NCBI GenBank assembly: GCA_024641335.1
Contig: JAHEDG010000007.1
Location: forward strand, 18,061-82,060
Direction: 5' to 3'
Source of the DNA: Candidatus Zixiibacteriota bacterium
GTDB taxonomy: Bacteria; Zixibacteria; MSB-5A5; UBA10806
DNA length: 64,000 nt
The notes under the pieces are model-generated. The model was not told where the DNA came from and made no database searches. It saw only the letters and a list, made by a program, of their open reading frames with translations. Made by a program: the position numbers and the translations under genes. Numbering within the stretch: the first letter of the stretch is position 1; each line of letters begins with the position of its first letter. Of this stretch, positions 11,175 through 57,952 are shown one piece after another.

Positions 11175-12188
11175 TTAGAATCCGCCGCTAAGGGTAATAC
11201 GGTGTACCGATCCGAGATCGGCGAATGAGGAGTAGGAATAATCCATGGTATATTTTTTATAGCTGTATCCGAATCCGCCGGCGAAACCGGCGATGGTATC
11301 GTTATCGTTACCGATCTTATAGTCTCTTCCGGCGGTGGTCCAGCCGACGCGCAGGAAGAACGGTTTTAGAGTGATGACCTCGAGACCCATGGCCAGGTAG
11401 TAATCGTTATCTATAGGTTTGCCTGCCTCGCTGGCGAAGACCAGCGGCAATCCCCGCAGCGCGTGAGACATCCCCAGGGCTATTTTTGTCGGCAGCGGGT
11501 CTTTGTGGGATTCTGTCAGCCCGGAAAGCTGGACTCCGAAATTGGTCAGGGCCAGCCCGATTCTGGTCGAACCGTCCTCCTGCAGAAGGTACATCAATCC
11601 CAAGTCTGCAGCCAGGCCGTCGGAGGAATATTCGTCGATCCTCTGATAAATCAATTTTCCCGAGGCCCCCAATGACAATCTCGGCATAACCCGCCGGGAA
11701 TAGGAAAGCGACAAGGCCATATCGGACGCTCCGAAGGTACCGATCAGATCTCCGCTGGAGTTGAGACGATCGAACGATCCGTAGTTTTGGTAGGCGGCCG
11801 ATATTCCGGCGGCCGAGCGGTCATCGAGGTTCCTGATATAGCCGATGAAACCGTATTGAAAATCCAGAAGGTAGTTCAGATATGAGGCGGTAAAACGGTT
11901 CTGAGCCGCGAGGTCTTCGGGCTTATCGAGAAGATCGTCGTAGAGCTCGTAGCTTTCGCCTTTGGCGGTCAACCCAGCGGGATTATAATACAGTGCGGTT
12001 TCATCATCGGCCAGGCCGACAAAGGCTCCGCCCAGGGCCTGGGATTTGGCTCCCGTGCCGACTTTCAGGAAGCTATAGGCGGTCGTACCGGCTTTCGGGT
12101 TGGCCGCCGACAGATCCGGGCAGATGACAGCCGCCGTGATTAGCGATACAACTATCAATTGTAAAATTTGTTTTTTTATCATTATCAA
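11175..12188 (-). CDS. PorV/PorQ-like outer-membrane beta-barrel protein
   Basis: Signal peptide, then the N-terminal motif AYSFLKVGTGAKSQALGGAFVGLADDETALYYNPAGL characteristic of the PorV/PorQ (FadL-like) family. The sequence ends in aromatic ...LSGGF. Confidence 0.5.
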   Translation of the reverse strand: MIMIKKQILQLIVVSLITAAVICPDLSAANPKAGTTAYSFLKVGTGAKSQALGGAFVGLADDETALYYNPAGLTAKGESYELYDDLLDKPEDLAAQNRFTASYLNYLLDFQYGFIGYIRNLDDRSAAGISAAYQNYGSFDRLNSSGDLIGTFGASDMALSLSYSRRVMPRLSLGASGKLIYQRIDEYSSDGLAADLGLMYLLQEDGSTRIGLALTNFGVQLSGLTESHKDPLPTKIALGMSHALRGLPLVFASEAGKPIDNDYYLAMGLEVITLKPFFLRVGWTTAGRDYKIGNDNDTIAGFAGGFGYSYKKYTMDYSYSSFADLGSVHRITLSGGF

Positions 12189-18001: not shown

Positions 18002-18697
18002 TTGTACATTCGGACCATGGATCAGGAAAACTACCGGTTGCTCAAAGATTTTTCGTCACGATGGGGAGCGGACCTGTTCGGGGTCGCTTATACGGATAAG
18101 CTGAAAGAATATATAGACCTTGAGATTCAGGAGGAAGCTTCGAGACTGCCGTTCGCCATCAGTATCGGGATTCGACTGCAGCGTACGGTATTGCATACGC
18201 TGATAAACCGTCCCAACCAGATCTACAAAACGCATTACCGGCAGGTCAATGACCATCTGGATAATATTACGACCATGATGGCGGGATTGATTCAACGCAA
18301 CGGATTCGATTCGATGCCGATAGCGGCGTCATTTGTGACAGACTGGAAGAAGCAAAGCGCGCATATCTCGCATCGTCACGCGGCCAGGGAAGCGGGTCTG
18401 GGGTTCATGGGGAAAAACAACCTGCTGGTTCATCCTGAATATGGGGCGGGGATCAGACTAGCGACAGTTCTGACCGATATGCCATTGACGGTGGATTCGC
18501 CGACAGCGGACGACTGCGGCCAATGCATGCAGTGCATGATCGCCTGCCCGGCCGAGGCTATCAGCGAAAAGGGATTCGATTTCGATAAGTGCTATGAGCA
18601 GGTAAAACAGTTCTCCAGGGAAAAAAACTATAATCTGTATATCTGCGGTTTATGTGTAAAGGCCTGCGCCGATGCCCGATCAAAAACCGAGGGTTAA
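18002..18697 (+). CDS. QueG-like 4Fe-4S protein (epoxyqueuosine reductase family, short form)
   Basis: AAREAGLGFMGKNNLLVHPEYGAGIRLATVLTD and a ferredoxin motif CGQCMQCMIACPAEAI plus CGLCVKACA. ATG 18017 is an alternative start. Confidence 0.5.
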   Translation: MYIRTMDQENYRLLKDFSSRWGADLFGVAYTDKLKEYIDLEIQEEASRLPFAISIGIRLQRTVLHTLINRPNQIYKTHYRQVNDHLDNITTMMAGLIQRNGFDSMPIAASFVTDWKKQSAHISHRHAAREAGLGFMGKNNLLVHPEYGAGIRLATVLTDMPLTVDSPTADDCGQCMQCMIACPAEAISEKGFDFDKCYEQVKQFSREKNYNLYICGLCVKACADARSKTEG

Positions 18698-23944: not shown

Positions 23945-26900
23945 ATGACCTTCAGGAACGCGTTACTGCTATCATCTATTCTATTGTATTCCGGCGGCAC
24001 AAGCGCGCAGGAGACCTATTTCGGTCAAAACAAGGTGCAGTACCGTGATTTTGACTGGTACTACATTCAGACGTCGCATTTCGATCTGTATTTTTACGAA
24101 AACGAGGATTCTCTGGCGGTATTCGCGGCCGAGGCTTTGGAGAAGGCTTTTACCGAGATTCATGCGGAATTGAATTACAGCCTTTCAGACCGGGTGCCGG
24201 TAATCGTTTACGCGTCACACAACGAATTTCAGCAGACCAATGTCATAAACGAGATAATTCCGGAGGGAGTAGGCGGTTTTACGGAGGTTTTCCAGAACCG
24301 CATTGTGATACCGTTTACCGGCTCCTACGAGGATTTTCGTCATGTTCTTCATCATGAGCTGACCCACGCGGTAATATTCGATCTGCTCTACGGCGGGGCT
24401 TTGGGTTCGGTATTTTCGAAGGAAGCGCTGTTTCGTCCTCCGCTTTGGTTTTCGGAGGGTTACGCGGAGTATTCATCGCGGCACGGCTGGGATCTGGAAG
24501 CCGATATGTTCATGCGTGACGCCACAATCGAGGGGTATCTTCCCCCGCTGATGTATTTGGACGGTTTCATAGCGTATAAGGGCGGTCAGTCGGCGTTGAA
24601 TTTCATAGTGGAGAAATACGGTCAGGAGAAGATCCTGGAAATTCTAAGCAGAGGCAAGGGGATGATCTCGATGGAGCGTGCGTCCAAATCGGCCCTGGGA
24701 GTTTCCCTGGAGGATTTATCCGACGAGTGGCAGAAGGCGTTAAAGAGGATGTACTGGCCGGAGATCGCCGAGAGGAAAGAGCCTGAGGAATTAGGTAAGG
24801 CGCTGACCGATCATACCAAGGACGGTTCGATCTACAATCAGAAGCCGGAATGGTCTCCCAAGGGTGACAGGCTGGCGTTTTTCTCCGACAAGTCGAATCC
24901 GCAGAACGGATATTCGGACCGTTATAATGAGATATATGTCATATCGACTGTGGACGGCACGGTGATATCGCGTCCGGTCAAGGCTGAACGGTCGGGCGAT
25001 TTGGAATCGCTGCATTCGTATTTATCGGGGCTGGCCTGGTCACCTGACGGCAAGCGTGTGGCTTTCATAAGCAAGAGTCACGGTCATGACGCTTTATTTA
25101 TTGTCGACGCCTCCAGCGGGAAACGGCGCAAGAGGATCGAGTTGGAGCTTACCGGAATGAGGAATCCGTCATGGTCGCCGGACGGCGGAAAGATAGCGTT
25201 CGAGGGGATGAAGAACGGCTTTACCGATCTTTATGTTTATCAACTGGAATCGGGGCATTTGGATCGTCTTATGAAGGATCGGTACGACGATAACGATCCA
25301 TCGTGGTCGCCGGACGGCCGGTACCTGGCATTCTCTTCGGACCGCGGCCCGCAGGCGATCGACAGTACGGGATTCGAACCGGGCAATTATAATATATACA
25401 CAATTCTGATGGAGACCGGGGAGATCCGTCAGCTGACAGACAATCCATATAAAAATATCCAGCCGGCATTTTCCCCGGACGGCAAGCGGATAGCATTTGT
25501 CTCCAACCGGAACGGCATCGACAACATCTATCTTTACGACATGCAGACAGAATCCGATTTTCCGATCACCAATATCATCTCCGGCGCGTTCACTCCGTCG
25601 TGGGCGCCTGAAGGGGACAAATTGGCGATTTCCGCATTCAACAAGTACGGATTCGATATATATATTCTGAAGGATTTAAAGAACGTAAGCGGTGAAAACG
25701 GGGAGTTGAGCCTGACGCCGTATATGCAGAAGCTTCGGAACAAGGACAAAAACATATTTGTGCCGGAGCCCGAGATCATTATAGCCGAAAGCGAGCCGGA
25801 GTCGGATACGACGGCTGATAAGGCGGTCGATTTGAGCACATATGTTTTCAGGGCCGGAGAGAAGATACTGGATGAGAGGAGCGGCAAGTCTCATCGTGAT
25901 TCCACATTGGAATCGGCCTCGATTCCTCTCAAGGATACGTTGGAGTACCTGGCTCCCGACGGCAGTTATAAGCAGAATAAATACAGATTGAAATTCGCTC
26001 CGGAGCTGATAACGGGCGGTCTTTCGTACGATAATTTTTACGGATTGCGGGGCCAGTCGTTTCTGGCAATCTCAGATATTTTCGGGGATCATCATTTTTA
26101 TGTAATCACCGATCTGGTCAACAGTATCGATCAATCGAACATTCAGATAAGCTATGGCTACACTCCGAGGAGGATCGATTACGCCGCGGGGATATTTCAT
26201 TTCAAGGATGTTTACTACGATGATTACAAGGGGTTTTTCTTTTCCGATCGAGTTTACGGCGCCCAGGGTCACGCCAGCTATCCGTTTTCCCGTTTTTCAC
26301 GTCTCGATCTGGCGTTGACGCAATTGACCATATCGAGGGAAAATTATTCGAATTTCGAGAAGAACGCGACCACCAATCTTTTTTCTCCGACTCTGGAGTT
26401 TGTAAACGACGCGGTGATCTGGGGAATAGTCGGTCCGGTATCGGGTCAGAGATACAAGGTAAGTCTGGAGCAATCTTTGAAGGCGGTGGATAACGGTTTA
26501 TCTTATACCGCGATCCAATTCGATTATCGCCATTACTGGCATTTCTGGGGGCGATATAATTTCGCGCTGCGCATGGGAGGCGGGACATCGGGCGGTTCCG
26601 ACGCCAAGCAGTTTCATCTGGGAGGCTCATCAAACTGGATCGGGCCGAAGCGGGATCGGGCCGATATTTTCAATGTCAAGGATATCTATGTGAACGAGAT
26701 CGTGGTTCCTCTTCGCGGATATAGCTATTTCAAGGATTCGGGGAGCAATTTCGGCATACTCAACCTGGAATTCCGTTATCCGTTCATAGATTATTTCCAG
26801 CTTCATTTTCCTCTGCCGATAGCGCTTCAGCAGGTATCGGGAGCGATATTCTGGGATATGGGCGCGGCCTGGAACAAAAACAGCGAGATACCGTTCAGGG

Positions 26901-27097
26901 CCGGCCAGGGGCTCAATGTTCAGAGTCCTGATGAATTCGGCAACCCGGTAAGCGACGGAGTCCTGGGGGGATTCGGAATAGGCGCGCGGGCCAACTTAGG
27001 GATATTCGTTTTGCGGGTCGATATGGCCTGGGCGACCGATTTGGATTATGTCGCTCCGAAACCGGAGACATATTTCTCATTCGGGGCGGAATTTTAA
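23945..27097 (+). CDS. Large envelope protein: N-terminal HExxH peptidase-like domain + TolB-type beta-propeller repeats + C-terminal Omp85/surface-antigen-like barrel
   Basis: Signal peptide and a HELTHAV motif. There are at least 6 repeats of the W/F-SPDG-K/R-x-[IL]AF type (PEWSPKGDRLAFFSD, LAWSPDGKRVAFISK, PSWSPDGGKIAFEG, PSWSPDGRYLAFSSD, PAFSPDGKRIAFVSN, PSWAPEGDKLAISA). The C-terminal ~350 aa have alternating beta-strand character and end in ...YFSFGAEF. Confidence 0.6.
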   Translation: MTFRNALLLSSILLYSGGTSAQETYFGQNKVQYRDFDWYYIQTSHFDLYFYENEDSLAVFAAEALEKAFTEIHAELNYSLSDRVPVIVYASHNEFQQTNVINEIIPEGVGGFTEVFQNRIVIPFTGSYEDFRHVLHHELTHAVIFDLLYGGALGSVFSKEALFRPPLWFSEGYAEYSSRHGWDLEADMFMRDATIEGYLPPLMYLDGFIAYKGGQSALNFIVEKYGQEKILEILSRGKGMISMERASKSALGVSLEDLSDEWQKALKRMYWPEIAERKEPEELGKALTDHTKDGSIYNQKPEWSPKGDRLAFFSDKSNPQNGYSDRYNEIYVISTVDGTVISRPVKAERSGDLESLHSYLSGLAWSPDGKRVAFISKSHGHDALFIVDASSGKRRKRIELELTGMRNPSWSPDGGKIAFEGMKNGFTDLYVYQLESGHLDRLMKDRYDDNDPSWSPDGRYLAFSSDRGPQAIDSTGFEPGNYNIYTILMETGEIRQLTDNPYKNIQPAFSPDGKRIAFVSNRNGIDNIYLYDMQTESDFPITNIISGAFTPSWAPEGDKLAISAFNKYGFDIYILKDLKNVSGENGELSLTPYMQKLRNKDKNIFVPEPEIIIAESEPESDTTADKAVDLSTYVFRAGEKILDERSGKSHRDSTLESASIPLKDTLEYLAPDGSYKQNKYRLKFAPELITGGLSYDNFYGLRGQSFLAISDIFGDHHFYVITDLVNSIDQSNIQISYGYTPRRIDYAAGIFHFKDVYYDDYKGFFFSDRVYGAQGHASYPFSRFSRLDLALTQLTISRENYSNFEKNATTNLFSPTLEFVNDAVIWGIVGPVSGQRYKVSLEQSLKAVDNGLSYTAIQFDYRHYWHFWGRYNFALRMGGGTSGGSDAKQFHLGGSSNWIGPKRDRADIFNVKDIYVNEIVVPLRGYSYFKDSGSNFGILNLEFRYPFIDYFQLHFPLPIALQQVSGAIFWDMGAAWNKNSEIPFRAGQGLNVQSPDEFGNPVSDGVLGGFGIGARANLGIFVLRVDMAWATDLDYVAPKPETYFSFGAEF

Positions 27098-27271
27098 GCG
27101 TCGAGAATAGCGAGCGGCGATAATCCGGCCATTCTGCCAGGGCGGGATCGGCCGCTGTCAGATCTTTACAATCTTATATCTTCAAATACTTTATCACTCA
27201 CAGTGTAGAATTGAATTGACATTTTTCCATTTATGGATAAATTTAGACAAAAACCGGAAAGGGTTTTTAAG

Positions 27272-29035
27272 ATGATTTTAATCAGGACTGCCTTAATAAT
27301 CGGGATATTGACTTCCATATTATATGCCGACAACCCGATGGCTTCGTTGGAATTAATAGATACGGATTACGGCTCCGGGGCATTAACATTAACGGAGATG
27401 TTGACTTACAAAGCCATAACGCTGACCGCTCCGGAATCATTACCCGCACGTTATCGGTTGGATCGTCCGATGAAGGACGGCACCCAGATAGTGATGGAAA
27501 TCAAGAATAACTGGATTTTGAGCGATCCGGAGTTCCGTCGGGATTTTTCGTTTCTTTTGACCAGGGTCGATAAGCAGGCTTATTTCGATTCGCCGTCGGG
27601 TTTTTTCCGAATTCACTATGATACGACCGGCGGGCACGCGGTATATCAGCCGGGCACTGATGTAGATCCTCATGACGGAGTACCGGATTATGTCAACAGG
27701 ACAGCGGAGTATTTCGATCTGGCCTGGCATATAGAATGCGACAGTCTGGGGTATGATACTCCGCCGTTCGACGGAGCACGCGGAGGGGGCCAGGATCTTT
27801 ATGACGTTTATATGCATCGATTTTCGGGCGCTTACGGGGTTACTTTTCCGGAGTTATCGTCAAACCAGAGGCCGGGGAGGAATAACGATTATTGCAGTTA
27901 TATTTATGTAGATCCGACTTATAGCGGATTCGGCTATAACGACCGCACTCTTCCGATGAAGGTAACGTCGGCGCACGAATTTTTCCACGCCTCACAGTTC
28001 GCCTACAATGTTAACGCCGGCGCCTGGTACATGGAAAACTGCGCGACCTGGATGGAGGATATCCTCTGGGATGATATCAACGATAACTACGCTTATTTGG
28101 GGTATTTTCTGAATAATCCGAACAAAGCGATAAGTTTTACCAATGGCGGATTCGAATACGGGGCTTTTCTCTGGCCGATGTTTCTTTATGAGAGCTGGGG
28201 GCATGATTTTATCCGTATCTCGTGGGAATACACCATAAATTACCCTGCCCTGACGGCGTTGGAAAGGACCTGCGAGGATAACGCCACATTTTTGGAAGAA
28301 CAGTACACTGTTTATTCGCTCTGGAATTACCTGACCAACGTCAGGAGCGACGGCAATCATTATGAGGAAGGTTCCAACTATATTCCCGCCTGGACCATGC
28401 GGACACACACATCGTACCCGGTGGAGAATCTGTCATCGACCAGGCGCGCGGACGCTTTGGGATGCAATTACATCATGTTCAGGAACAACGGGCAGGAGGG
28501 GAATCTTCAGATAACATTCGACGGGCTGGACAACCAGATCTGGTACGTACAAGTCATCAAGGCGGTATCCAACAGCAGCCATGTTTACGATTTCATCGAC
28601 TTGAACTTCCGCAACGAAGGGGAATACGCGGTGGAGGATTTCGGACAGTACGAGTGGGTGGCCCTGGCGGCCGATCTGATTCAGGGTTCATTGGGTGATT
28701 ACGATTATTCCGCGTATATATTACAGACGGGCATAGGATCGGAGAGCGCGGAATTGCCTCAAGAGCCGATACTCCGGGGGAATTATCCGAATCCGTTCAA
28801 CCCGGAGACGATGATATCGGTATATTCGCCGTCGGAGCAAAAGGCGCAACTGACGGTGTATGATATCATGGGACGAAAATCTGTGGAGAGATCGATTGAT
28901 CTTTCCGCGGGCGAGAATAATATCCCGTTAAGAATTGATGGTTCGGACGACGGGAGAGATTCGGGCGGCGTATATTTTTACAGGATCTCATGGGGCGGAT
29001 ACGAATTTAACGGCAAGATGCTTTATCTCAAGTAG
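27272..29035 (+). CDS. Secreted putative zinc metalloprotease (HEFFH motif, MXAN_6640-like) with a T9SS-type C-terminal domain
   Basis: Signal-like MILIRTALIIGILTSILYA from ATG 27272; the ORF track starts at 27233. TSAHEFFHASQFAYN is an HExxH motif. The C-terminus reads GNYPNPFNPETMISVY...GVYFYRISWGGYEFNGKMLYLK. Confidence 0.55.
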   Translation: MILIRTALIIGILTSILYADNPMASLELIDTDYGSGALTLTEMLTYKAITLTAPESLPARYRLDRPMKDGTQIVMEIKNNWILSDPEFRRDFSFLLTRVDKQAYFDSPSGFFRIHYDTTGGHAVYQPGTDVDPHDGVPDYVNRTAEYFDLAWHIECDSLGYDTPPFDGARGGGQDLYDVYMHRFSGAYGVTFPELSSNQRPGRNNDYCSYIYVDPTYSGFGYNDRTLPMKVTSAHEFFHASQFAYNVNAGAWYMENCATWMEDILWDDINDNYAYLGYFLNNPNKAISFTNGGFEYGAFLWPMFLYESWGHDFIRISWEYTINYPALTALERTCEDNATFLEEQYTVYSLWNYLTNVRSDGNHYEEGSNYIPAWTMRTHTSYPVENLSSTRRADALGCNYIMFRNNGQEGNLQITFDGLDNQIWYVQVIKAVSNSSHVYDFIDLNFRNEGEYAVEDFGQYEWVALAADLIQGSLGDYDYSAYILQTGIGSESAELPQEPILRGNYPNPFNPETMISVYSPSEQKAQLTVYDIMGRKSVERSIDLSAGENNIPLRIDGSDDGRDSGGVYFYRISWGGYEFNGKMLYLK

Positions 29036-29043
29036 GGAGGAAA

Positions 29044-29586
29044 ATGAAATTAGGTGGAATTATCGCCGTATCGGCTGTCTTGCTGGCGGCATCCTCGGCG
29101 AACGGCCAGGATTTCAAGTCGAAAACAGCCCCGGATTTCACGCTGCCGGGGATCAACGGCTCATTGATGACCCTTTCGAAGCAATATGGCGAAGGCCCCG
29201 TTTATATATCGTTCTGGGCCACCTGGTGCAAACCGTGCCGGGAGGAGCTGAAGATAATCCAGGGGCTTTATGAGAAGTATTCGGACAGAGGTTTTAAGGT
29301 TATCGCTATCAACACTGAAGGTCCGAAGGCCGAAGGCAAGATCAAGAGCTTTGTAAAATCGAACGGCTGGACATTCGACGTTCTTCTGGACAAGGACGGG
29401 GAAGTATTCCGCCGTAAATATAAGGGCTTTGCCATGCCTTTTACAGTCATGACCGATTCGGATGGGAATATCGTATTCTCAACGGTTGGTTTCAAGCCGG
29501 GGGACGAGAAGGAGATCGAGGATCTGATTCTCAAGAATCTTCCTCCATCGAAAGACAACAGCGAAGATTCCGGGTCGGAGGATTAG
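29044..29586 (+). CDS. TlpA/ResA-family periplasmic thiol-disulfide oxidoreductase
   Basis: Signal peptide and a thioredoxin motif FWATWCKPCREE. The size is typical of TlpA. Confidence 0.85.
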   Translation: MKLGGIIAVSAVLLAASSANGQDFKSKTAPDFTLPGINGSLMTLSKQYGEGPVYISFWATWCKPCREELKIIQGLYEKYSDRGFKVIAINTEGPKAEGKIKSFVKSNGWTFDVLLDKDGEVFRRKYKGFAMPFTVMTDSDGNIVFSTVGFKPGDEKEIEDLILKNLPPSKDNSEDSGSED

Positions 29587-31020
29587 ATGGGCGGGCGCGT
29601 ATTTTCGGGAGTAGCGATCGCGGTATTTGGTTTTTTTATAGCTCTTTTCATACTCTCCGATATGGCGGCGGCTCAGAATGAGTACTGGTCGGTGTCGGCG
29701 GCCAACTGGGGGCAATACTGGTATTTCAACGAGGGCAGGCGGGATTCTCTGGACAACAGATTTATAGTCGATTTCGATCTGGGGAATTTTTACACCGGCG
29801 CCTGGTTAGAGGTGCTGGAACCGGACCGTCCGGACGGGTCGTACGAAGAGATATCCCAAAGGTATTTCGGCTGGCATGAAGGCGGGCTGACTCTTCAGGC
29901 GGGGAATTTTTATCAGGCGTTCGACAGGGGTCTTTCGCTCAACGCGTTTTTGGATGACGCGGTATATTACGATAACAATTTGGACGGGATCAAGGTTACG
30001 GGGCTGTACGACGGATTCGAGTTCGATATGCTGTCGGCTCGGGGGATGAATAATTTCACCGGCGATCGGGATTATATTATCCGGGGGGTTCGCGGGAAGA
30101 TCAAGCCGTTCGAGGCGGCCCGGGCTGGATTTTCGTATGTACGATTCAAGCAGAACGATTTTTCCGATTTCAGCCTGTCGCAGAACGCCAATATCACATC
30201 GTTTAATTCGGGGGTTTCTTACGGTCCTCTGGATATTTACGCGGAGTACGCGATGAAGAGGGGTCGTCCGGAGTTCGGGCAGGATATCGACGGGGACGGC
30301 ACCTACCTGACCGGTTCAATGAGTTTCGAGCTATTCAGCGTATTCGCCGAATACAAGAACTACATAAATCTACTTTACCCCAATGTTAACGGGGCGTTCA
30401 ATAATCCTCCGCCGGTCAGCCATCAGGGCCGCAATTTAGCGTCCTTGAATGGAGTTCCCGGGGAAAGAGGTTACCAGGCGGGGCTGTATATATCTCCGAC
30501 TTATGATTTGAATTTCGATCTTTCATTTTCCGAATCGTTTTCCCGCGGTTTTCCTGTAGATTACTACCTGGCGGAGAAATTCGCGGGGGCGCGCTGGAGC
30601 CCGACATCGGAGATAGTTCTGAATTACAGTTTCGACCGTTTTGACTGGACAATCGAGGATGAGATCGAGAATTACTTCGACGCCTATTACAATCTGACAG
30701 AAAACCATACGGCGTCACTCACGGCTTATTCCAAAAGATTCATCCCGTCGGCGGGAGAAGATTACCATGAGGATTACCTGATATTGGGATACGGTCTGGC
30801 CAACAGGGCGCAGTTCAATATCGGTGGTTCCAAATCGAATTTCGACGCGGGTTTCGATCCCGACAAATTGGCGTTTGCCGAGCTAATTATCCGATTCAGC
30901 AATCATGAACTGATAATTTTCAACGGCGGCGAACGCGGCGGTTTGATCTGCTCGTCAGGACTCTGCCAGAACCGTCCGACATTCATAGGCACGCGGATGA
31001 TGTTATTTTCGAGATTTTAA
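29587..31020 (+). CDS. Putative outer-membrane beta-barrel protein (possibly DUF6029-like)
   Basis: The ATG directly abuts the tlpA stop. N-terminal hydrophobic signal, alternating-strand composition, a Cys pair near the C-terminus (CSSGLCQNRP), and a terminal aromatic ...LFSRF. Confidence 0.45.
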   Translation: MGGRVFSGVAIAVFGFFIALFILSDMAAAQNEYWSVSAANWGQYWYFNEGRRDSLDNRFIVDFDLGNFYTGAWLEVLEPDRPDGSYEEISQRYFGWHEGGLTLQAGNFYQAFDRGLSLNAFLDDAVYYDNNLDGIKVTGLYDGFEFDMLSARGMNNFTGDRDYIIRGVRGKIKPFEAARAGFSYVRFKQNDFSDFSLSQNANITSFNSGVSYGPLDIYAEYAMKRGRPEFGQDIDGDGTYLTGSMSFELFSVFAEYKNYINLLYPNVNGAFNNPPPVSHQGRNLASLNGVPGERGYQAGLYISPTYDLNFDLSFSESFSRGFPVDYYLAEKFAGARWSPTSEIVLNYSFDRFDWTIEDEIENYFDAYYNLTENHTASLTAYSKRFIPSAGEDYHEDYLILGYGLANRAQFNIGGSKSNFDAGFDPDKLAFAELIIRFSNHELIIFNGGERGGLICSSGLCQNRPTFIGTRMMLFSRF

Positions 31021-31132
31021 GGGGCAATGATGGGCCGGTTTATCCAGGCGAGAAACGATAAATGTTATTGTTTTTTTTAGAAAATGCCGTATTATTGTAA
31101 AAAGCCGGAATTTTTTAAGTGAAGGAGGTTTG

Positions 31133-32188
31133 ATGAGCATCGTTAAGGGAACAGCCCTGGCTCTGGGAGTATCGTTAATACTTCTTTTTGTCAGCGCGCG
31201 GGCCGCGGACAGGCTGGTCGTTGGCGAGATGCTGACGAACACGTCGTGAAGCTACTGTTATCAAGCTGATCTGGTCTTAGATCAGTTGGCAGTAGACATG
31301 GAAGCCTTAACGGTTTTCATTCGTTATCATACGTGGTGGCCGAGCGCGAACGATCCGTTTTATGTGTACAATGTAACCGAGAACAGGGTCAGAAACGACT
31401 ACTACGGGAACAATTACACTCCTCATTTTTTCATCGACGGGGCGATTGACGCCGGCTCGAATCACGGGTCGTGGGGTTCTCGGATCGATGACCGGAGCTT
31501 GTCATGGGCGCCATTGGAGATGAGTATCGCCGGTGTTTACGATGAGGATACCCGCACGGGGCAATTCACAGTGACAATTTATGTGGAAGACGCTCCGGGG
31601 CTGGGTACGACGAGGCTGCGGATAGCGTTGACAGAGACAGATATTCAATGGAACGCTCCTAACGGCAGCCGGGTACATGATCAGACATTTCGCGATATGA
31701 TACCGTCGACCTACGGACAGCCGGTTACGTTGACCCAGGGAGAAACGCTGCAATATACGTTCGATCTGTCGGTACCTGAGCCTTTGAATCCCGACAACTG
31801 TATGCTGGTAGCGTTCGTTCAGTCCGATCAAAGCAGAGAGATCCTTCAGGGGGCGCGCAAAGCGGTTCCAGAGCTAACTCAAACAGCGATCGATGACGAA
31901 GTTTCCCTGCCGGAGAATCCGAGCCTTTTGCAAAATTATCCCAACCCGTTCAATGCCGGCACGAAAATCGATTTTTACACCCGCGGCGGCGATGTTCGGC
32001 TGACGGTGTATGATCTGAGCGGGGCGGCAGTAAGGACATTAGTGGATAATTCCCTTGAGGCCGGGCTCCATTCGATAGTATGGGACGGCACTGACGATGA
32101 AGGGCATGAGATTTCGTCGGGAGTTTATTTCTACCGTCTTTCCGATTCGGGCGGCGCGTCTACCAACAGGATGACGCTCCTCAAGTAA
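31133..32188 (+). CDS. Predicted secreted selenoprotein: thioredoxin-fold/Omp28-related domain with U-x-x-C motif (Sec at TGA 31247-31249) and a T9SS-type C-terminal domain
   Basis: GAAGGAGG at 31121-31128, ATG 31133, signal peptide MSIVKGTALALGVSLILLFVSARA. The frame is continuous through TGA 31247 into the ORF-track ORF 31286-32188. A SECIS-like hairpin follows the TGA. The C-terminus reads QNYPNPFNAGTKIDFY...GVYFYRLSDSGG...RMTLLK. Confidence 0.75.
31250..31295 (+). promoter_or_regulatory. SECIS-like stem-loop immediately downstream of UGA
   Basis: Lower stem CTACTG (31252-31257)/CAGTAG (31290-31295). Upper stem CTGATCT (31266-31272)/AGATCAG (31279-31285). Apical loop GGUCUU (31273-31278). 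The core is identical in the paralogue. Confidence 0.7.
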
Positions 32189-32215
32189 TATATTTTTAAG
32201 TTCGCCTTTAAGATG

Positions 32216-32250
32216 CTCTTCCGATTTTTCGGGAGGGCATTTTATATTTA
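32216..32250 (+). terminator. Rho-independent terminator after selenoprotein gene 1
   Basis: Stem CTCTTCCG/CGGGAGGG (contains G-U pairs) with loop ATTTTT, followed by a T-rich tail CATTTTATATTT. Confidence 0.55.
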
Positions 32251-32442
32251 GGGTGATTTCGCTCTAATCTCTGGCGGAGATATTTTACTAATGGATTTAA
32301 AATCGCGCGGGACGCGGGATTAAGAGTAATAATGGATCGATAAGAGTCATGTTATATGTCTGTGAGATATTTGGGCAAATAATTGTTGTTTTTATCTGAG
32401 ATGGTCATATATTAAAAAAAACTAACCGCTGAAGGAGGCTTA

Positions 32443-33498
32443 ATGAGCAACGTGAAAAGTTTGGTTTTCCTGGCACTAATAGGGGCGCTGTGTATATCGA
32501 CCGCCTCATTTTCGGCTGAAAGGCTGGTAGTGGGCGAGATGCTCACGAACACATCGTGAAGTTACTGTTATCAAGCTGATCTGGTCTTAGATCAGTTGGC
32601 GGTTTCGATGGATCGTGTCGCGGTATTTATTCGGTATCACGTATACTGGCCAAGCCCGAATGATCCATATTACGTTTTTAACCCGACCGAAAACAGGGCA
32701 CGGAACACTTATTATGGCAACAATTACACGCCTCATTTTTTCATAGACGGCAGCATTGACGGGGAGTACTACAACAACCAATGGCAAAACATGATAACCG
32801 CCCGGGCCGAAGTCAGTTCCCCGTTGATCATGGAAATCGGCGGCAGTTACGACGAAAATAACAGAAGCGGCAATATGACTGTTACGATATCGGCTGAGGA
32901 AACTCCGTCGCAATCCAATTTGAAATTGAGAGTCGCCCTGATTGAGAACGGCATCCGGTGGAACGCTCCTAACGGGAGTACGGCACATGAGCAGACGTTC
33001 AGGGACATGATTCCCAGTACGGCGGGCGAACCGGTTACTATTTCCGCTCATGAAACATTGGAATTCAGCTATGATTTTACCACCCCCAGTCCACTGGTAC
33101 CGGCCAATTGCGTTTTAGTCGCCTTTGTGCAATCGGATCAGAACAAGGAGATTCTTCAGGGGGCGCGTTCATGGGTCTCCCGTCTGACTCCGACTGAGGT
33201 TGAGGACGGCGCACCAATGCCGAATGAATTTTCATTGGAGCAGAACTATCCGAACCCGTTCAACGCCGACACCAGAATCGGTTTTATTACCGATGGGGGC
33301 GCGGCCGAATTGATGGTTTACGATTTGACCGGTTCGCTGGTAAAGAACCTGTTTAGCGATACTCCGGAAGCGGGATATCATTCGGTTATCTGGGACGGCA
33401 CGGATGAATCGGGTAATGACGCGGCTTCGGGAGTGTATTTTTACCGTTTAAAGACAAACGGCGAAGAGCAGATCAAGAGGATGACGCTTTTGAAATAA
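32443..33498 (+). CDS. Predicted secreted selenoprotein, tandem paralogue (Sec at TGA 32557-32559), U-x-x-C motif + T9SS-type C-terminal domain
   Basis: GAAGGAGG at 32431-32438, ATG 32443, signal peptide MSNVKSLVFLALIGALCISTASFSA. In-frame TGA at the same codon (39) as the first copy. Same 351-codon length. The C-terminus reads QNYPNPFNADTRIGF...GVYFYRLKTNGEEQIKRMTLLK. Confidence 0.75.
32560..32603 (+). promoter_or_regulatory. SECIS-like stem-loop immediately downstream of UGA (copy 2)
   Basis: Upper stem CTGATCT (32576-32582)/AGATCAG (32589-32595) and loop GGUCUU (32583-32588). A 38-nt block (32563-32600) is identical to 31253-31290. The lower stem is partly retained with G-U pairs. Confidence 0.7.
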
Positions 33499-33530
33499 GC
33501 GTTATCTGAATCATATTTTCAGAATCCAAA

Positions 33531-33558
33531 CCCTTCCGGAAAATTCGGGAGGGTTTTT
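33531..33558 (+). terminator. Rho-independent terminator after selenoprotein gene 2
   Basis: Stem CCCTTCCG/CGGGAGGG, loop GAAAATT, then TTTTT. Confidence 0.75.
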
Positions 33559-33612
33559 ATATTTCTTGATTATCCGTATTTTTATGGTGGGAAGAAAATT
33601 CTATAGTTCGAT

Positions 33613-34101
33613 TCAATTGAGATGAGAATTAATATTTTTATGTTTGACGGCGATTTGTCGGGCATAGGGGATTAATCCGCCCGATTCGAATATTTTCAGG
33701 ATAACATCAGGGAAGGCCTGGAATTTGGCCTGTCCTTTTTTGAAGGTGATACTGCCGGCGGCCAGATCGATTTTTATATTTTCGCCGTCTCTGACCTGAT
33801 CGAACGCCTGGTCATCGGAGATCAGGGGCAAACCGTTATTAATGCCGGATCTGAAAAAACCTCTGGAGAACGATGTGGCTACGACGGCGGCGACCCCGGC
33901 ATCCAACAGGGATCTGATAGCCTTGGAAGATAAATCTCCGATTTCATTTCCGAAGAATCCGGGGGCGATAACTATATCTCCGGGGCGGATATCAAACTCA
34001 TTTCTCCGGGCGATATCTTCAGGCGATCGCGGAGCCCATATCGATTCTATATGGGTTTTTTTTCCAAGCTTAATGACCCGTCCTTCGATAATTGATTTCA
34101 T
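33613..34101 (-). CDS. LeuD-like (aconitase swivel-domain) small subunit with degenerate substrate loop
   Basis: Alignable to archaeal-type LeuD (VAAVVATSFSRGFFRSGINNGLPLI, GGLIPYAR). However, GDNIDTD is replaced by GKKTHIE, and NFGCGSSREHA by FFGNEIGDLSSKA. Confidence 0.65.
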   Translation of the reverse strand: MKSIIEGRVIKLGKKTHIESIWAPRSPEDIARRNEFDIRPGDIVIAPGFFGNEIGDLSSKAIRSLLDAGVAAVVATSFSRGFFRSGINNGLPLISDDQAFDQVRDGENIKIDLAAGSITFKKGQAKFQAFPDVILKIFESGGLIPYARQIAVKHKNINSHLN

Positions 34102-35696
34102 CGTATATATTTCCTCGGATCAGCGACGGAGCCTTCGAGGGCAGTGGCGGCCGCGGTGGCCGGAGAGGCCATCATTAATTCGGTTTCTGTTGATTCGGCC
34201 AATCCGTTGGAGAAGCCGATGGCGGTGGTCAGGGCCCTCTCCCCTTTTTCCAGCATCCGGTTATGGTTATCAAGGCCGATTTTATAGCCAGGATTGACAA
34301 CCATGCATCCCGATTCCACGAAGATTTTCACGTAGCCTCTATCGATAGCTTCCAGCAGGATTTTTCTGGATCCGGGTACGATGATCATGCGAAGATCACG
34401 ATTGATTCTTCTTCCCCGGAGGATTTTAGCGGCAATCTCCAGATCATCGATATGTCCGTTGGCGTATGATCCGAGGACAACGAGGTCGACTTTTCGTCCG
34501 GCCACTTCCTCGATGGGCGACAGGCCTTCTTTTCTTCCGGCAAAAGAGATCTGTGGGGTCAGATAATTGATATCGATTTCTATTTCATCATTGTATTCCG
34601 CGTCGGGATCAGACCTGACCGGACTGTATTTCACTTTGGCTATTTTTCTCAGGTATCGGGAGACAGAATCGTCAAAGGGGGTTACGGCGGATTTAGCCCC
34701 TGTCAAGGCTGCCAGGCCGGTTAGTGTGAACCTCTCGGAGACAGACATGGCCGATACGGCGGGGCCGCAGAACTCCAGAGACCTGAATTCGTCTTTGTTT
34801 TTTGCCAGATCATGAATAATTTTGAGCATGATATCCCCTGGAAAAACGCCACGTCCCAATTTACCGCTAATTTCGATTTTATCGGTGGGCGGGATTTTGA
34901 GCCACATTCTGCCGGTCGCCCAGACGGCGGCCATTTCCGTTTCGGTAATTCCGACGGAAACCGCGCCCAGGCATCCATAGGAGATGGCGAAAGGGTCGAC
35001 TCCGAAAGCCAGCTGCCCGGGCAAAACATGGCCGTTTTCCACTACAACCTGATGACATATCCCTTCGCCGATATCGTAGAAGTGCTTGAGTTTTTGAATT
35101 CTGGCAAACTCCCGGATCGATTTTATGGTATCGATATCGTTATTGGACTCATGGTGATTATTCTGGTCGAGGACGATGACCAGTTTATCGGGATCCCAGA
35201 TTTTTCCGGCGCCGATTTTATTGAACTGTTCGATAACTTCGGCGGCGTTATTGCGGGTCATGACCAGGTCTGGTTCCACGTTGACTATTTGCTCTACATC
35301 AACGTTTTTAAGGCCGGATTTTCTGGCCAGGATTTTACGTATAACGGTTTCTTTTTTGGATGATTTTTTGCGACCGTTGTCGTTGAGGGCCAGCTCCAGT
35401 TGTTCGAGCCTTAGTTGTTGAGGCTTTCCTATGATTTCGTATCGTCGACGCCATTGTCTGAAGCCAGCGGCGCTGATCCCGAGCTCCGCCCCGGCCTTGG
35501 AATCGTCGCCGAATCTCTCCCAGCATTCCAGTATTTTATCTTCGTTGTACTTGGGATAGGAATAGGGGCCGATTTTTTTCTTGCTTCGCCAATAGGCGAC
35601 CAGGCGGGCAGGTACTCCATAGACCTCGCCGATTTTTTTATCGGAGTGGTATTTTTTTTGAAGTTCGAGCAGTTCTTTTTTTCTGGGAATCCTCAA
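34098..35696 (-). CDS. HTH-domain fusion to a LeuC/HacA-like aconitase-family large subunit lacking all Fe-S ligands
   Basis: Residues ~117-532 are collinear with archaeal-type LeuC (GICHQVVVENGHVLPGQ, ASPATAAATALEGSVADPR), but DSHT, GSCTNG, PGCxxC and STSNRNFxGR are all substituted. The N-terminal ~115 aa contain two HTH-like units. The only available start is non-ATG (TTG 35696). Confidence 0.7.
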   Translation of the reverse strand: MRIPRKKELLELQKKYHSDKKIGEVYGVPARLVAYWRSKKKIGPYSYPKYNEDKILECWERFGDDSKAGAELGISAAGFRQWRRRYEIIGKPQQLRLEQLELALNDNGRKKSSKKETVIRKILARKSGLKNVDVEQIVNVEPDLVMTRNNAAEVIEQFNKIGAGKIWDPDKLVIVLDQNNHHESNNDIDTIKSIREFARIQKLKHFYDIGEGICHQVVVENGHVLPGQLAFGVDPFAISYGCLGAVSVGITETEMAAVWATGRMWLKIPPTDKIEISGKLGRGVFPGDIMLKIIHDLAKNKDEFRSLEFCGPAVSAMSVSERFTLTGLAALTGAKSAVTPFDDSVSRYLRKIAKVKYSPVRSDPDAEYNDEIEIDINYLTPQISFAGRKEGLSPIEEVAGRKVDLVVLGSYANGHIDDLEIAAKILRGRRINRDLRMIIVPGSRKILLEAIDRGYVKIFVESGCMVVNPGYKIGLDNHNRMLEKGERALTTAIGFSNGLAESTETELMMASPATAAATALEGSVADPRKYIR

Positions 35697-36187
35697 GATT
35701 TCCCTCTCAGGCTGTCGAAACCGGGTTTGAAGAGCAGGTATATCTCATCTAATGAGAAGGATTGGACTCGGGCGTTGCCGGCAACAGGCATGAAATTATT
35801 ATCTCCCAGAAACCTGGGGACGACATGGATATGCAGATGGTCTTTAATTCCGGCTCCGGCTATCGCTCCGAGGTTCATACCGATATTGAAACCATCGGCG
35901 GGCATGGCTTTTTTAATAATGCTGACGCAATTTCTGGCCATGATATTCATTTCGCTCCATTCGGATGAGGAGAGCGATTCGATTTCCCCTTTATGAATTT
36001 TTGGGACGACCATCAGATGGCCGGAGTTATAGGGATATTTATTCATAATAACGAAGCATTTCTTCCCCCTGTGGAGGATCAAATTCAAACGATCGGATCT
36101 TTGTTTGATCCGATTGCAGAAGATACATCCTTTTTCCTTAGGACCCATGATGAAATCCCGTCGCCAGGCGGCCCATAAAATATCCAT
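35693..36187 (-). CDS. HIT family (histidine triad) nucleotide hydrolase/phosphorylase
   Basis: LWAAWRRDFI...CIFC N-terminus, NKYPYNSGHLMVVP, and the histidine triad DHLHIHVVPR. Start chosen at ATG 36187. The TGA stop overlaps the TTG start of the next gene. Confidence 0.8.
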   Translation of the reverse strand: MDILWAAWRRDFIMGPKEKGCIFCNRIKQRSDRLNLILHRGKKCFVIMNKYPYNSGHLMVVPKIHKGEIESLSSSEWSEMNIMARNCVSIIKKAMPADGFNIGMNLGAIAGAGIKDHLHIHVVPRFLGDNNFMPVAGNARVQSFSLDEIYLLFKPGFDSLRGKS

Positions 36188-36284
36188 AATGGTAATGATA
36201 AAAATAGAAAAACGGGATCGCAAATCAAGGGAATTCTGAATCGGGGGCGATAAATAGAGGATAAAGTATCAATCGAAGAGGTTA

Positions 36285-38381
36285 CTACAGGGAAATAGCG
36301 CGATCAGCCCATTGATCGTAATGATCCTGGCTGGTCAGAAGTAGGATCTGGTGGTTGCCGGAGAGCTCTTTGAGCACTTTCATGGCACTGCTTATCCGTA
36401 CGGGGTCAAAACCGGCGAAGGGATCATCGAGGATGAGTACGGAATTGCGGCTTTCGGAGATGAGATCGGCGAGGGCCAGCCTGGCGGCGAGGTAGATTTG
36501 CTCCACGGTATTGGATGAGAGGGCTGTATCGGGGTCGACCCAGTCACCTTTTTCCTCCGACCAGACTTCGAATTTGAGATTGGATTTATCGAAGCGTACT
36601 TTGGAATACCGTCCTGAAGTCAGGGAGGAGAGAATTTCGGAGGTTCCCCTGTTGAGGACTTCGAGCTTGGACATAAGCACGTTCTGCCGGGCTTCTTCGA
36701 CGCATTCTTTGGTCAATCCGAGTATGCGGAGTTCTTTTTTCAAGGATTCTATGCCGGAGTTGGCCCGTTCCTTGCGTTCATTGTAGCTGGCCAGAAGCTC
36801 GGAGCCGCCTTCAGCGGTCTCGATCTGCAGCCGGATCACCTGTCGTTCGTGTTCGAGATCCTTGATTCTCTCCTGGAATTCAGCGATCACCTGCATTTGC
36901 CTTTCGAGGTCGGTTCTATCCCGCAGGTTGGGAGCGAGTTCTTCTTTTTCGCGGGTGATATTATCGAGTTCTTCGCTCAACTCATCGAATTGCTTTTGCA
37001 GAGCTTCGAGTGTCTGCCCTTTCATCATGTGGACATATTTATCGGCATCCTCCAGAATTCTCTTTCCGATCTCGTCGTAGCTCCAGGAATTCTTTTTCAA
37101 TTCATCATTAGTGGAAACGCGGTATCTGGACAAAATATCGAAGAGGATTTTATTATGATTTTCGGTTTCGGTTTTTGATTCGTCGAGTTTTTCGGCCAGT
37201 TGCCGGGCTGAATCGGCCAGACTTTGGCGGTGTTTTTTACGGGAATTGAGAATCGATAGTCCCAGGATACAAAGAGAAATTGAACCGGCGAGAGAATACC
37301 ACAGGTGCGGATAGAATCGGGGGAACAGAGAGAAATAGTGAGCCGCAGTCAGGGCGGCCGATCCCAGGAATCCGATCGCGCCCATTATCTTAAATGAAGC
37401 GCTGATTTTATAGGCGGCCAGGTTCTCTTCTGCGACCTGCAGATCGGCGGCCAGATCCTGATTTTTCTGGATACAGAAGGCGATGGTCTTTTCGGATTCA
37501 TCAGCCAATTTGATATCGTTCTGGTCGATTTTTTTCAGGGCGGCTTTTTGAGCGCGAAGCGATTCCACGCTGGAATGGAGTTCTCGTCCTTCCTTCAGCT
37601 TCTTTTCTGTGAGAATGTATTCATCGGAGAGTTTGGTCGCTTTTTCGGCTATATTGGAGGCTCTTCTCCCCCATTTGAGTTTTTCCTCTCTGGAGGCAAG
37701 ATCGTCACATACGTTTTTGTAAGCGGTTTCAACCTGGATAAGATCGGCCCTTTTCTTCTTCAATCCCTCGATATCGCGGGCGAGCCTGTTGATATTATAA
37801 TCCAGTTCCTCCGAAACAGATACGGAGCGGCTGATTTCCAAGGCGATATCGGCGATTCTTTTTTCTATTTTGCGAATGGTCATTGAGCCGGCCTGGTCTT
37901 CCCTGCCTCCGGTCACCAGCGATTCGAGTTTATCCTGAATGGCTTCAATAGATTCGTCGATGCGAGTAACAGCGCCCTGGCTGACGCAGGCGGTGGCTTT
38001 GAAGACTTTTTCGGAGGGGATGCCGGTTTTTTCGGCCAGCCATTGATTAATAGCATCGGGAGCCGTAACCTCCGAATCGGGACTTCCGCCGCTGATTTGG
38101 GCAACTCCGCGCTCGAAATCTTTAGTCAGTTTGAATGATTTGCCGTCGATATCGAAGAAGGCCTCGATCACCGGGGCGTTACCGGTACCCCACCTGACAG
38201 CCTGAGGAATATGATCATTTTCGGCCGCCGGATTGAGGAACAGGGCGGCGCTGACAGCTTCGACCAGGGTCGATTTACCGGCCTCGGAGGGCCCTTTAAT
38301 GACGTTCAGGCCGGGCGAGAAATCGCATTCGAAAGACTCGAATTTGCCGAAGTTTTTCAGTAGGAAATGAGAGATCAGCAT
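36285..38381 (-). CDS. SbcC/Rad50/YhaN-like AAA ATPase with a central transmembrane hairpin
   Basis: Walker A GPSEAGKST at the N-terminus and long coiled-coil-type sequence. The C-terminus has the signature-like LSSNTVEQ and Walker B VLILDDPFAGFD. Two hydrophobic helices lie at residues ~331-379. Confidence 0.7.
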   Translation of the reverse strand: MLISHFLLKNFGKFESFECDFSPGLNVIKGPSEAGKSTLVEAVSAALFLNPAAENDHIPQAVRWGTGNAPVIEAFFDIDGKSFKLTKDFERGVAQISGGSPDSEVTAPDAINQWLAEKTGIPSEKVFKATACVSQGAVTRIDESIEAIQDKLESLVTGGREDQAGSMTIRKIEKRIADIALEISRSVSVSEELDYNINRLARDIEGLKKKRADLIQVETAYKNVCDDLASREEKLKWGRRASNIAEKATKLSDEYILTEKKLKEGRELHSSVESLRAQKAALKKIDQNDIKLADESEKTIAFCIQKNQDLAADLQVAEENLAAYKISASFKIMGAIGFLGSAALTAAHYFSLFPRFYPHLWYSLAGSISLCILGLSILNSRKKHRQSLADSARQLAEKLDESKTETENHNKILFDILSRYRVSTNDELKKNSWSYDEIGKRILEDADKYVHMMKGQTLEALQKQFDELSEELDNITREKEELAPNLRDRTDLERQMQVIAEFQERIKDLEHERQVIRLQIETAEGGSELLASYNERKERANSGIESLKKELRILGLTKECVEEARQNVLMSKLEVLNRGTSEILSSLTSGRYSKVRFDKSNLKFEVWSEEKGDWVDPDTALSSNTVEQIYLAARLALADLISESRNSVLILDDPFAGFDPVRISSAMKVLKELSGNHQILLLTSQDHYDQWADRAISL

Positions 38382-57649: not shown

Positions 57650-57677
57650 TGGTATTACATCTCTCCCAGGATAATAA

Positions 57678-57948
57678 GCCGCGCACCCACCGTTGACCCA
57701 TCGTTTCGGGGACCCGATCCGGCTTTGGGCTGGGATCAGACTGCCCCGCGGCACACGCCGCTGCCGCTTACCGCTGCTACCTTCCGGTCCTGACGGGGTT
57801 AGGCGGCCGTCCGTTGCGCGGGATCTGATCCTTTATAACGCTTCCGGCCGGCTGGATTTCCCGAATGATCGGACCGCCGGTGGGACTTCAACCCCGGTAT
57901 AGCGGATTCCGGGTTACAGGGCACCGCTAACTCCCCGTCTAGCACGAC
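57678..57948 (-). ncRNA. ffs: Signal recognition particle RNA, long (Bacillus/archaeal-type, Alu-domain-containing) form
   Basis: The minus strand reads GUCGUGCUAGACGGGGAGUUAGCGGUGCCCUGUAACCCGGAAUCCGCU..., which closely parallels the 5' Alu domain of B. subtilis scRNA. The domain IV core GUCAGGACCGGAAGGUAGCAGCGG is present. The 5' GUCGUGC pairs with the 3' GCGCGGC. The ends are approximate. Confidence 0.85.
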
Positions 57949-57952
57949 ATTC

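Follow-up and report, generated by a model that had tools for sequence, protein, structure and literature searches.

Candidate coding-region SECIS hairpins in two tandem Omp28-like genes of a Candidatus Zixiibacteriota bacterium

During bacterial selenocysteine (Sec) decoding, SelB–GTP with Sec-tRNA(Sec) binds the apex of a selenocysteine insertion sequence (SECIS) element. The stretch of DNA under study—hereafter the window—comprises 64,000 nucleotides (nt) of contig JAHEDG010000007.1 from a Candidatus Zixiibacteriota bacterium (positions 18,061 to 82,060) and features two tandem genes with an Omp28 domain, each with an in-frame UGA and a small hairpin directly past it; as judged by a comparative signal, each of them very probably carries a bacterial SECIS element. 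The SECIS of E. coli fdhF has conserved loop nucleotides G23 and U24 and a conserved bulged U17, with U17 and G23 being the sites of SelB binding (PMC8659212). The general rules for bacterial SECIS (bSECIS) elements are a loop of 3–9 nt, a stem of 4–16 bp, a G in the first two loop positions, a spacing of 16–37 nt between UGA and loop, and a minimum free energy (MFE) of −7.5 kcal/mol or lower (PMC13188914). With regard to the encoded protein, the closest described family is the Omp28-related selenoprotein NF045500, a UxxC protein that a 2026 review names 'Hypothetical protein GOS_C' (PMC13188914, Table 1). The GOS metagenome study that introduced GOS_C counted 74 Sec forms and 312 Cys homologues and described the fold as thioredoxin (Trx)-like (PMC2398784). 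The Pfam families PF11551 and PF06764 are both absent from the selenoprotein table of PMC13188914, and a literature search returned no paper naming an Omp28 selenoprotein as such and no paper linking Zixibacteria to Sec use. HBP35 of Porphyromonas gingivalis features a thioredoxin-like motif, thioredoxin activity and a C-terminal domain of the type IX secretion system (T9SS), and is secreted by this Por/T9SS route (PMC2907840, PMC3120885).

The two genes of the window (Table 1) align without gaps over 1056 nt, with a nucleotide identity of 60.1% and an amino-acid identity of 57.4%. The product obtained by reading through the UGA carries the motif RLVVGEMLTNTS-U-SYC-Y. Pfam Omp28 (PF11551) matches gene 1 with 62 bits and gene 2 with 69.8 bits, and there is a weak match to DUF1223 as well; gene 1 is, in addition, matched by FlgD_ig and Por_Secre_tail. 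The T9SS C-terminal sorting domain TIGR04183 is recognized in the two proteins with 35.3 and 34.7 bits, respectively, at a cut-off of 23. By eye—an inspection with no predictor behind the call—the signal peptides are MSIVKGTALALGVSLILLFVSARA, ending before AD, and MSNVKSLVFLALIGALCISTASFS, ending before AE. Signal peptide and T9SS C-terminal domain are both present in the read-through product only, since the downstream open reading frame (ORF) alone holds the C-terminal domain and lacks a signal peptide. TGA is the stop codon of 9 of the 21 confident genes in the window; the genetic code is therefore standard, and a reassignment of UGA was rejected. A scan of the window for TGA codons that link two ORF fragments and precede a hairpin left only the sites at 31247 and 32557 as credible, and a pattern search for the hairpin (up to three mismatches) recovered the two gene copies and two chance sites, and nothing else in the window.

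Counting the U of the UGA as nt 1, the upper stem of the hairpin pairs nt 19–27 with nt 32–40 and presents the apex G27 G28 U29 C30 U31 U32. This 9-bp hairpin begins 15 nt past the in-frame UGA, and its 29-nt segment folds with an MFE of −11.8 kcal/mol (z = −3.8). Measured against the bSECIS rules, both window copies have a loop of 4 nt (GUCU), or of 6 nt (GGUCUU) if the closing G–U pair is not counted, a stem of 9–10 bp, a spacing of 24 nt, which puts the first loop nucleotide at nt 28, and the above MFE of −11.8 kcal/mol; G27, G28, and U29 are invariant in 32 sequences. The initial annotation had proposed a SECIS element at this site, and this proposal is supported by the agreement with the bSECIS rules, by a hairpin that tracks TGA among orthologues, by covariation, and by the alignment of Sec with Cys in UxxC and CxxC motifs. 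In gene 1, a lower stem of 9 bp can be added below the upper one, which brings the MFE to −21.1 kcal/mol (z = −4.0); gene 2 can form 7 of these pairs. The inner five pairs of this stem (nt 10–14 with 41–45) are paired in 69% across 22 orthologues, and RNAalifold on 32 sequences does not predict it; because of these two results, the lower stem was dropped as a core part of the element and is kept as optional.

The comparison set consists of 43 distinct TGA forms and 23 Cys forms. Forty-seven loci were obtained by scanning metagenome contigs with the Omp28 domain alone, and contig look-ups yielded eight further loci, seven of them distinct (L133 and L134 are near-duplicates); these include the complete Zixibacteria genomes CP070813.1 and CP070742.1. 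Another scan, of genome contigs with the full-length alignment, was set aside: nearly all of its 80 loci are other T9SS cargo matched only over the sorting domain, the patterns behind this being the T9SS C-terminal motifs QNYPNPFN and SGVYFYRL. In the 23 Cys-form genes and in about 30 full-length proteins, the first Cys of CxxC takes the place of the UGA (U39), with TNTSCGPCY in full-length Cys homologues versus TNTS-U-xxC in TGA forms. Loss of the hairpin from orthologues that keep the TGA had been raised by the initial annotation as an objection to its proposal; the hairpin is, however, retained, as a hairpin passing the rules in a strict implementation without bulges occurs in 37 of 43 TGA forms versus 1 of 23 Cys forms. 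The stability of the fold follows the same division, with a mean z of −1.58 for TGA forms versus +0.12 for Cys forms (Mann–Whitney p = 1e-6). Among the first 22 main-type TGA genes, no copy of the 22-nt core GAUCUGGUCUUAGAUC deviates by more than one substitution, even though protein identity to gene 1 is only about 40–60%. The core recurs in 20 further TGA genes of the initial metagenome set; of 10 additional unique TGA sequences, collected later from other contigs and genomes with both complete Zixibacteria genomes among them, 8 have it. Synonymous-codon variability in TGA forms is 0–0.19 across codons +6 to +12 (A D L V L D Q), compared with 0.42–0.78 at most of their flanking codons and 0.44–0.78 in the same columns of Cys forms.

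RNAalifold on the 32 main-type sequences returns exactly the 9-bp hairpin and nothing else. In these sequences 97.2% of the stem cells are paired, versus 14–36% when the 3′ partners are slid out of register. A search for covariation in orthologues had been suggested in the initial annotation, and compensatory double changes are indeed present in four of the nine pairs: 20–39 (CG to AU or UA), 21–38 (UA to CG), 23–36 (AU to GC), and 26–33 (UA to AU). None of 500 shuffles reached the observed covariation score. Other clades have hairpins of another kind, and nearly all of their loops contain GU; one such clade, with a loop shifted downstream by about 10 nt, has independent covariation from G–C to A–U. 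The main hairpin is spread across a broad, deeply branching clade in a neighbour-joining (NJ) tree, with Cys forms nested at several points. This distribution argues for an old and retained element rather than one that was copied recently.

Individual loci of the comparison set show further features. The locus in CP070813.1 (L128, 5950–10606) comprises four tandem TGA paralogues, all annotated as truncated ORFs of 252–300 aa, and two of the four have compensated stems: U–A to A–U at 26–33 and A–U to G–C at 23–36. At L113 (3035–3090), a TGC gene keeps the hairpin CUCGGCAGGUUGGCCGAG of TGA relatives in L111 and L115, and its TGA neighbour within L113 carries a compensated variant of this hairpin. 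A TGT gene at L094 (232–290) features a decayed main hairpin, GCUAAUCUGGUUUUAGAUCAGC. The presence of such 'fossil' SECIS hairpins in the Cys paralogues of L113 and L094 suggests recent replacement of Sec by Cys. Immediately 5′ of the UGA (31244–31246 and 32554–32556 in the window), UCG is used by 15 of 22 main-type Sec forms versus 2 of 20 Cys forms, and 19 of the 22 Sec forms have AAC as codon −3; this codon bias may stem from a context constraint on UGA decoding.

The two window genes share a block of 38 identical nt, TACTGTTATCAAGCTGATCTGGTCTTAGATCAGTTGGC (31253–31290 and 32563–32600). The initial annotation had described this identity between otherwise diverged paralogues, and it is confirmed at a gene-wide nucleotide identity of 60.1%: the block is the longest identical run between the genes, and the next one measures 17 nt. 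All differences described on its upstream side (GTC GTT/GTA GTG, CTG/CTC, ACG/ACA, AGC/AGT) and on its downstream side (A GTA GAC ATG GAA GCC versus G GTT TCG ATG GAT CGT) are likewise found in the sequences. Upstream, an identity of about 90% reaches to approximately 31208, where the peptide RLVVGEMLTNTS is conserved and synonymous differences occur. The perfect conservation had been said to lie exactly over the hairpin and to reflect constraint at the RNA level. This holds in part: the block contains the 22-nt upper hairpin but has 12 nt 5′ (UAC UGU UAU CAA) and 4 nt 3′ in excess of it, and RNA-level constraint across orthologues applies to the core of about 22 nt but not to all 38 nt. The constraint seen family-wide is limited to nt 19–40 (31265–31286 and 32575–32596), with both flanks varying among orthologues. 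As judged by the pair alone, the signal is moderately significant. The genes use the same codon in 86 of 190 degenerate codons with the same amino acid (45%); codons 41–52 are identical throughout, a stretch of 12 (permutation p = 0.005), and 12 of 15 are identical in codons 40–54 versus 74 of 175 elsewhere (Fisher p = 0.006). It is the orthologue data that settle the constraint on the RNA.

The proposed mechanism is that of established Sec decoding, about which the locus reveals nothing new. SelB–GTP carrying Sec-tRNA(Sec) would bind the GGUCUU apex and deliver the tRNA once the UGA enters the ribosomal A site, making Sec the first residue of UxxC. The ribosome would then melt the hairpin and translate its codons, GCU GAU CUG GUC UUA GAU CAG UUG, into A-D-L-V-L-D-Q-L, which would enter helix α1 of the Trx fold. 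All nine stem pairs join the third codon position of one arm with a first or second position of the other arm, as in U21–A38, U24–A35, A23–U36, and U26–A33. A silent change hence breaks a pair that can be repaired only by an amino-acid change in helix α1, and this coupling of silent to non-silent positions is why the silent sites are frozen. Compensated variants accordingly alter the peptide, for example to ADQVLDQM or AGLVIDQL. In addition, there is almost no variation at C30, a third codon position within the loop; this points to recognition of the loop by its sequence. Stem pairing together with a sequence-specific GGUC loop would thereby keep the 22-nt core fixed between the paralogues and across distant orthologues. 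The geometry of the stem, tying silent to non-silent positions, makes this a clear case of overlapping codes.

The identity of the block could also have been produced by a short tract of gene conversion between the tandem paralogues, with no selection on the RNA. Such an event fits with the adjacency of the genes and their placement as sister lineages in the NJ tree, with the modest statistics of the pair alone (p about 0.005), and with the 12 nt 5′ and 4 nt 3′ of the core, which are identical in the pair and variable among orthologues. It does not, however, account for the 22-nt core in most of the 30 other unique TGA genes of alignment A5, which belong to other contigs and genomes, nor for the absence of the core from Cys forms—even where these encode a similar peptide—and differing stem positions are usually compensated. 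A larger converted tract, which the initial annotation had brought up as a possible objection, is not present: identity falls to 60–67% directly downstream of the block, and synonymous differences occur directly upstream. As an explanation of the block, gene conversion is therefore very unlikely. It could, on the other hand, be the source of the 16 flanking nt, which may equally reflect chance or a lineage-specific lower stem; a chance match, with four two-fold degenerate codons at roughly 50% each, amounts to about 5–10%. That protein constraint on the conserved helix ADLVLDQL, together with codon preference, would alone keep the nucleotides identical is barely credible. The peptide lies within helix α1 past the active site and has related versions in Cys forms, e.g., ANLVLDQL and ADLLLDQL, but the Cys-form columns vary both in silent sites (0.44–0.78) and in residues, and both kinds of variation collapse in TGA forms. 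Moreover, flanking codons whose residues (V, E, T, C) are just as conserved show a silent variability of 0.5–0.77.

The hairpin might further be a different cis-element—a pause site, an attenuator, or a binding site for an RNase or another protein—with the UGA being a leaky stop or the trace of a split or decaying gene. This would agree with gene callers, which read the UGA as a stop, with databases, which carry truncated ORFs only, and with the Sec machinery, which is not seen in the window. It is nevertheless highly improbable: the hairpin tracks TGA (37/43 versus 1/23), the UGA aligns with a redox Cys, and more than 40 loci preserve the reading frame, the signal peptide and the strand RLVVGEMxTNTS 5′ of the UGA. 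Furthermore, the loop geometry and the GGUCU apex fit the SECIS model and the fdhF SECIS, and the downstream ORF by itself would be a T9SS C-terminal domain deprived of its signal peptide. A SECIS element in each gene is thus the preferred explanation, against which the following points have to be held. Neither selA, selB, nor selD occurs in the 64-kb window or the fetched loci, and no gene for tRNA-Sec occurs in the window or in 55 loci. No Rfam 15 family matched the hairpin at the gathering threshold or at E up to 10; this null says little, as no family in the library matched the hairpin at all, and the Rfam matches near the genes are chance ones only (the terminator-like hairpin at 32169–32251 and a meaningless mir-24 on the minus strand). 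Six of the 43 TGA forms fail the strict rule without bulges: in four of them the main hairpin is weakened at its base or broken by a mismatch or bulge, L110_1435 features a different, bulged hairpin, and L101_2573 is without a convincing one. High conservation of the hairpin leaves the covariation on 8 cells in four pairs, 16 nt of the block lie outside the core and are unexplained by family-wide constraint, and the insertion of Sec, here and in the clade, is a prediction from sequence.

If each UGA is indeed decoded as Sec, the gene models of the locus have to be corrected. The deposited products of both genes (P0001 and P0031) measure 296 aa and start at an internal Met a few codons past the TTG listed in Table 1, and hence feature neither a signal peptide nor a redox motif. 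A protein search gave 824 relatives of two kinds. Relatives of approximately 350 aa carry CxxC motifs of the type TNTSCGPCY, whereas those of approximately 290–300 aa begin directly past the position of the TGA and are truncated gene calls; some of the latter are named 'Omp28-related outer membrane protein [Candidatus Zixiibacteriota]'. In the window as well as in public Zixibacteria genomes, ORFs of about 250–300 aa without signal peptide and active site would thus be replaced by true products of about 350 aa with Sec.

The structure considered is an AlphaFold2 model of a Cys homologue, P0002, not of the window proteins, and has a pLDDT of 86.5. It features an N-terminal helix (residues 2–17), a Trx fold, a β-sandwich and a C-terminal domain, in this order. 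The first Cys (Cys38) is situated in a loop just before helix α1 (residues 41–54) of the Trx fold. In the PDB, the model is matched best by HBP35 (5y1a, E = 1.3e-14) and by 2axo, a DUF1223 protein; a further match is the Omp28 domain 2r2c of P. gingivalis. We infer that the product of each window gene is a signal-peptide-bearing, T9SS-sorted, HBP35/Omp28-like protein with a Trx-like domain; it is probably a selenol/thiol oxidoreductase of the cell surface.

The two genes are preceded by a redoxin gene and a DUF6029 gene, whose product would be an outer-membrane β-barrel. The order redoxin, DUF6029, and one to four Omp28-like genes is shared by the window and each of the seven distinct related loci (L128–L135). 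Most loci feature, in addition, a gene for a TolB-like propeller upstream (23945–27097 in the window) and genes of the aconitase family, HIT, Rad50-like, and Metallophos on the opposite strand; the conserved order spans 23945–38381 of the window. The arrays often mix Cys and Sec paralogues, with two Sec genes in the window and four in CP070813.1. This arrangement points to a functional unit formed by the redoxin, the DUF6029 protein and the predicted surface selenoproteins. A tentative and rather doubtful extension of this picture is an uncatalogued, Zixibacteria-centred clade of T9SS-sorted HBP35/Omp28-like selenoproteins, organized in tandem arrays of one to four paralogues, either all Sec or with Cys forms among them, invariably downstream of the redoxin and DUF6029 genes, and acting together with the products of these in a selenol/thiol relay across the envelope, in which SECIS and helix α1 would be an ancient dual-coding module kept through repeated switches from Sec to Cys. 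A gene of the PorV/PorQ family is present in the window, so the genome encodes the secretion system that the C-terminal domains imply.

Each of the two predicted selenoprotein genes apparently has its own terminator (Table 1). The metalloprotease gene at 27233–29035 sits between the TolB-like gene and the redoxin gene; it is absent from this place in both complete Zixibacteria genomes, and in L132 a DUF6055 protein with a T9SS sorting domain occupies the position. Further away, the signal recognition particle (SRP) RNA is followed by dnaX (55973–57754) and recR (54997–55590), which is a common arrangement. The ORF at 18002–18697 may be a truncated or divergent ferredoxin-like protein.

Table 1. 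Positions of the two predicted selenoprotein genes, their sequence elements, and other features in the window
Feature	Position	Strand	Details
Predicted selenoprotein gene 1	31133–32188	+	351 codons: signal peptide, Trx-like domain with UxxC, Omp28-type β-sandwich, T9SS C-terminal sorting domain
Predicted selenoprotein gene 2, tandem paralogue of gene 1	32443–33498	+	351 codons; architecture as gene 1
In-frame UGA of gene 1, codon 39, predicted to be read as Sec	31247–31249	+	First residue of motif TNTS-U-SYC-Y
In-frame UGA of gene 2, codon 39, predicted to be read as Sec	32557–32559	+	From alignment with gene 1 and homologues
Shine–Dalgarno sequence of gene 1, GAAGGAGG	31121–31128	+	4 nt 5′ of ATG
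Shine–Dalgarno sequence of gene 2, GAAGGAGG	32431–32438	+	4 nt 5′ of ATG
Predicted SECIS upper hairpin of gene 1, GCUGAUCUG-GUCU-UAGAUCAGU	31265–31286	+	nt +19 to +40 from U of UGA
Predicted SECIS upper hairpin of gene 2, identical to gene 1	32575–32596	+	Apex GGUCUU at 32583–32588
Hairpin apex GGUCUU of gene 1	31273–31278	+	
Optional lower stem, 5′ arm, CUACUGUUA	31252–31260	+	Pairs with 31287–31295; weak support
Optional lower stem, 3′ arm, UGGCAGUAG	31287–31295	+	7 of 9 pairs kept in gene 2
TTG taken as start of the 300-aa downstream ORF, gene 1	31286–31288	+	Inside the 3′ arm of the hairpin; ORF listed at 31286–32188
Equivalent TTG, gene 2	32596–32598	+	ORF listed at 32596–33498
Terminator-like hairpin 3′ of gene 1, GAUGCUCUUCCGAUUUUUCGGGAGGGCAUUUU	32169–32251	+	Weak chance Rfam matches: PyrG leader, FourU
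Terminator-like hairpin and T run 3′ of gene 2	33528–33556	+	Stem of 13 pairs
TlpA/ResA-like thiol-disulfide oxidoreductase (redoxin), motif WCKPC	29044–29586	+	Pfam AhpC-TSA, Redoxin; NF002854 ResA 96 bits
DUF6029 protein, directly upstream of the predicted selenoprotein genes	29587–31020	+	Pfam DUF6029 8e-17
PorV/PorQ-family T9SS outer-membrane protein	11175–12188	−	NF033709 157 bits (cut-off 90)
MXAN_6640-family HExxH putative metalloprotease, 600 aa, T9SS sorting domain	27233–29035	+	NF045524 196 bits (cut-off 140)
Bacterial large SRP RNA	57679–58028	−	158.5 bits; directly adjoins tRNA-Ala(CGC)
231-aa ORF	18002–18697	+	Partial match to Fe-S region of QueG epoxyqueuosine reductase/reductive dehalogenase, 72 bits (cut-off 200)

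Compared with the fdhF SECIS, the element of the window is likewise a hairpin inside the coding region directly 3′ of a Sec-UGA and shares the pentanucleotide GGUCU, the apex of fdhF being GCA-GGUC-UGC as read from NC_000913.3. It differs in the apex, which lies 5 nt further from the UGA (G28/U29 versus G23/U24 in fdhF), in the 9-bp upper stem, which is fully paired, without a bulged U like U17, and in the loop of 4–6 nt (GUCU closed by G–U, or GGUCUU). The conservation of nucleotides among orthologues is unusually strong.

The predicted proteins resemble the Omp28-related selenoprotein NF045500 in having UxxC in a Trx-like fold and Cys homologues. They belong to the same superfamily, with a predicted Sec at the same kind of site; gene 1 scores 44.6 bits and gene 2 scores 61.2, well below the cut-off of 200, and they are hence not members of that equivalog. 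In structure, HBP35 (5y1a) comes closest to the modelled Cys homologue, with a TM of 0.54–0.59; it differs in carrying Cys instead of Sec, and sequence identity is only 14%. The exported UxxC selenoproteins of the Trx superfamily—a thiol:disulfide interchange protein and DsbA-like, DsbG-like and Prx-like/TlpA-like proteins (PMC13188914, Table 1)—have in common with the window proteins UxxC in a Trx fold, an extracytoplasmic location and coexisting Cys paralogues. They belong, however, to other domain families, and none is listed with an Omp28 β-sandwich and a T9SS C-terminal domain; the window genes point to type IX secretion as a way by which selenoproteins are exported. Taken by their predicted products, the two genes are a divergent, Zixibacteria-linked branch of a known superfamily, with a putative SECIS of textbook bacterial type and truncated in annotation, and they extend the Omp28-related selenoprotein superfamily to a branch missed by the curated model of NCBI.

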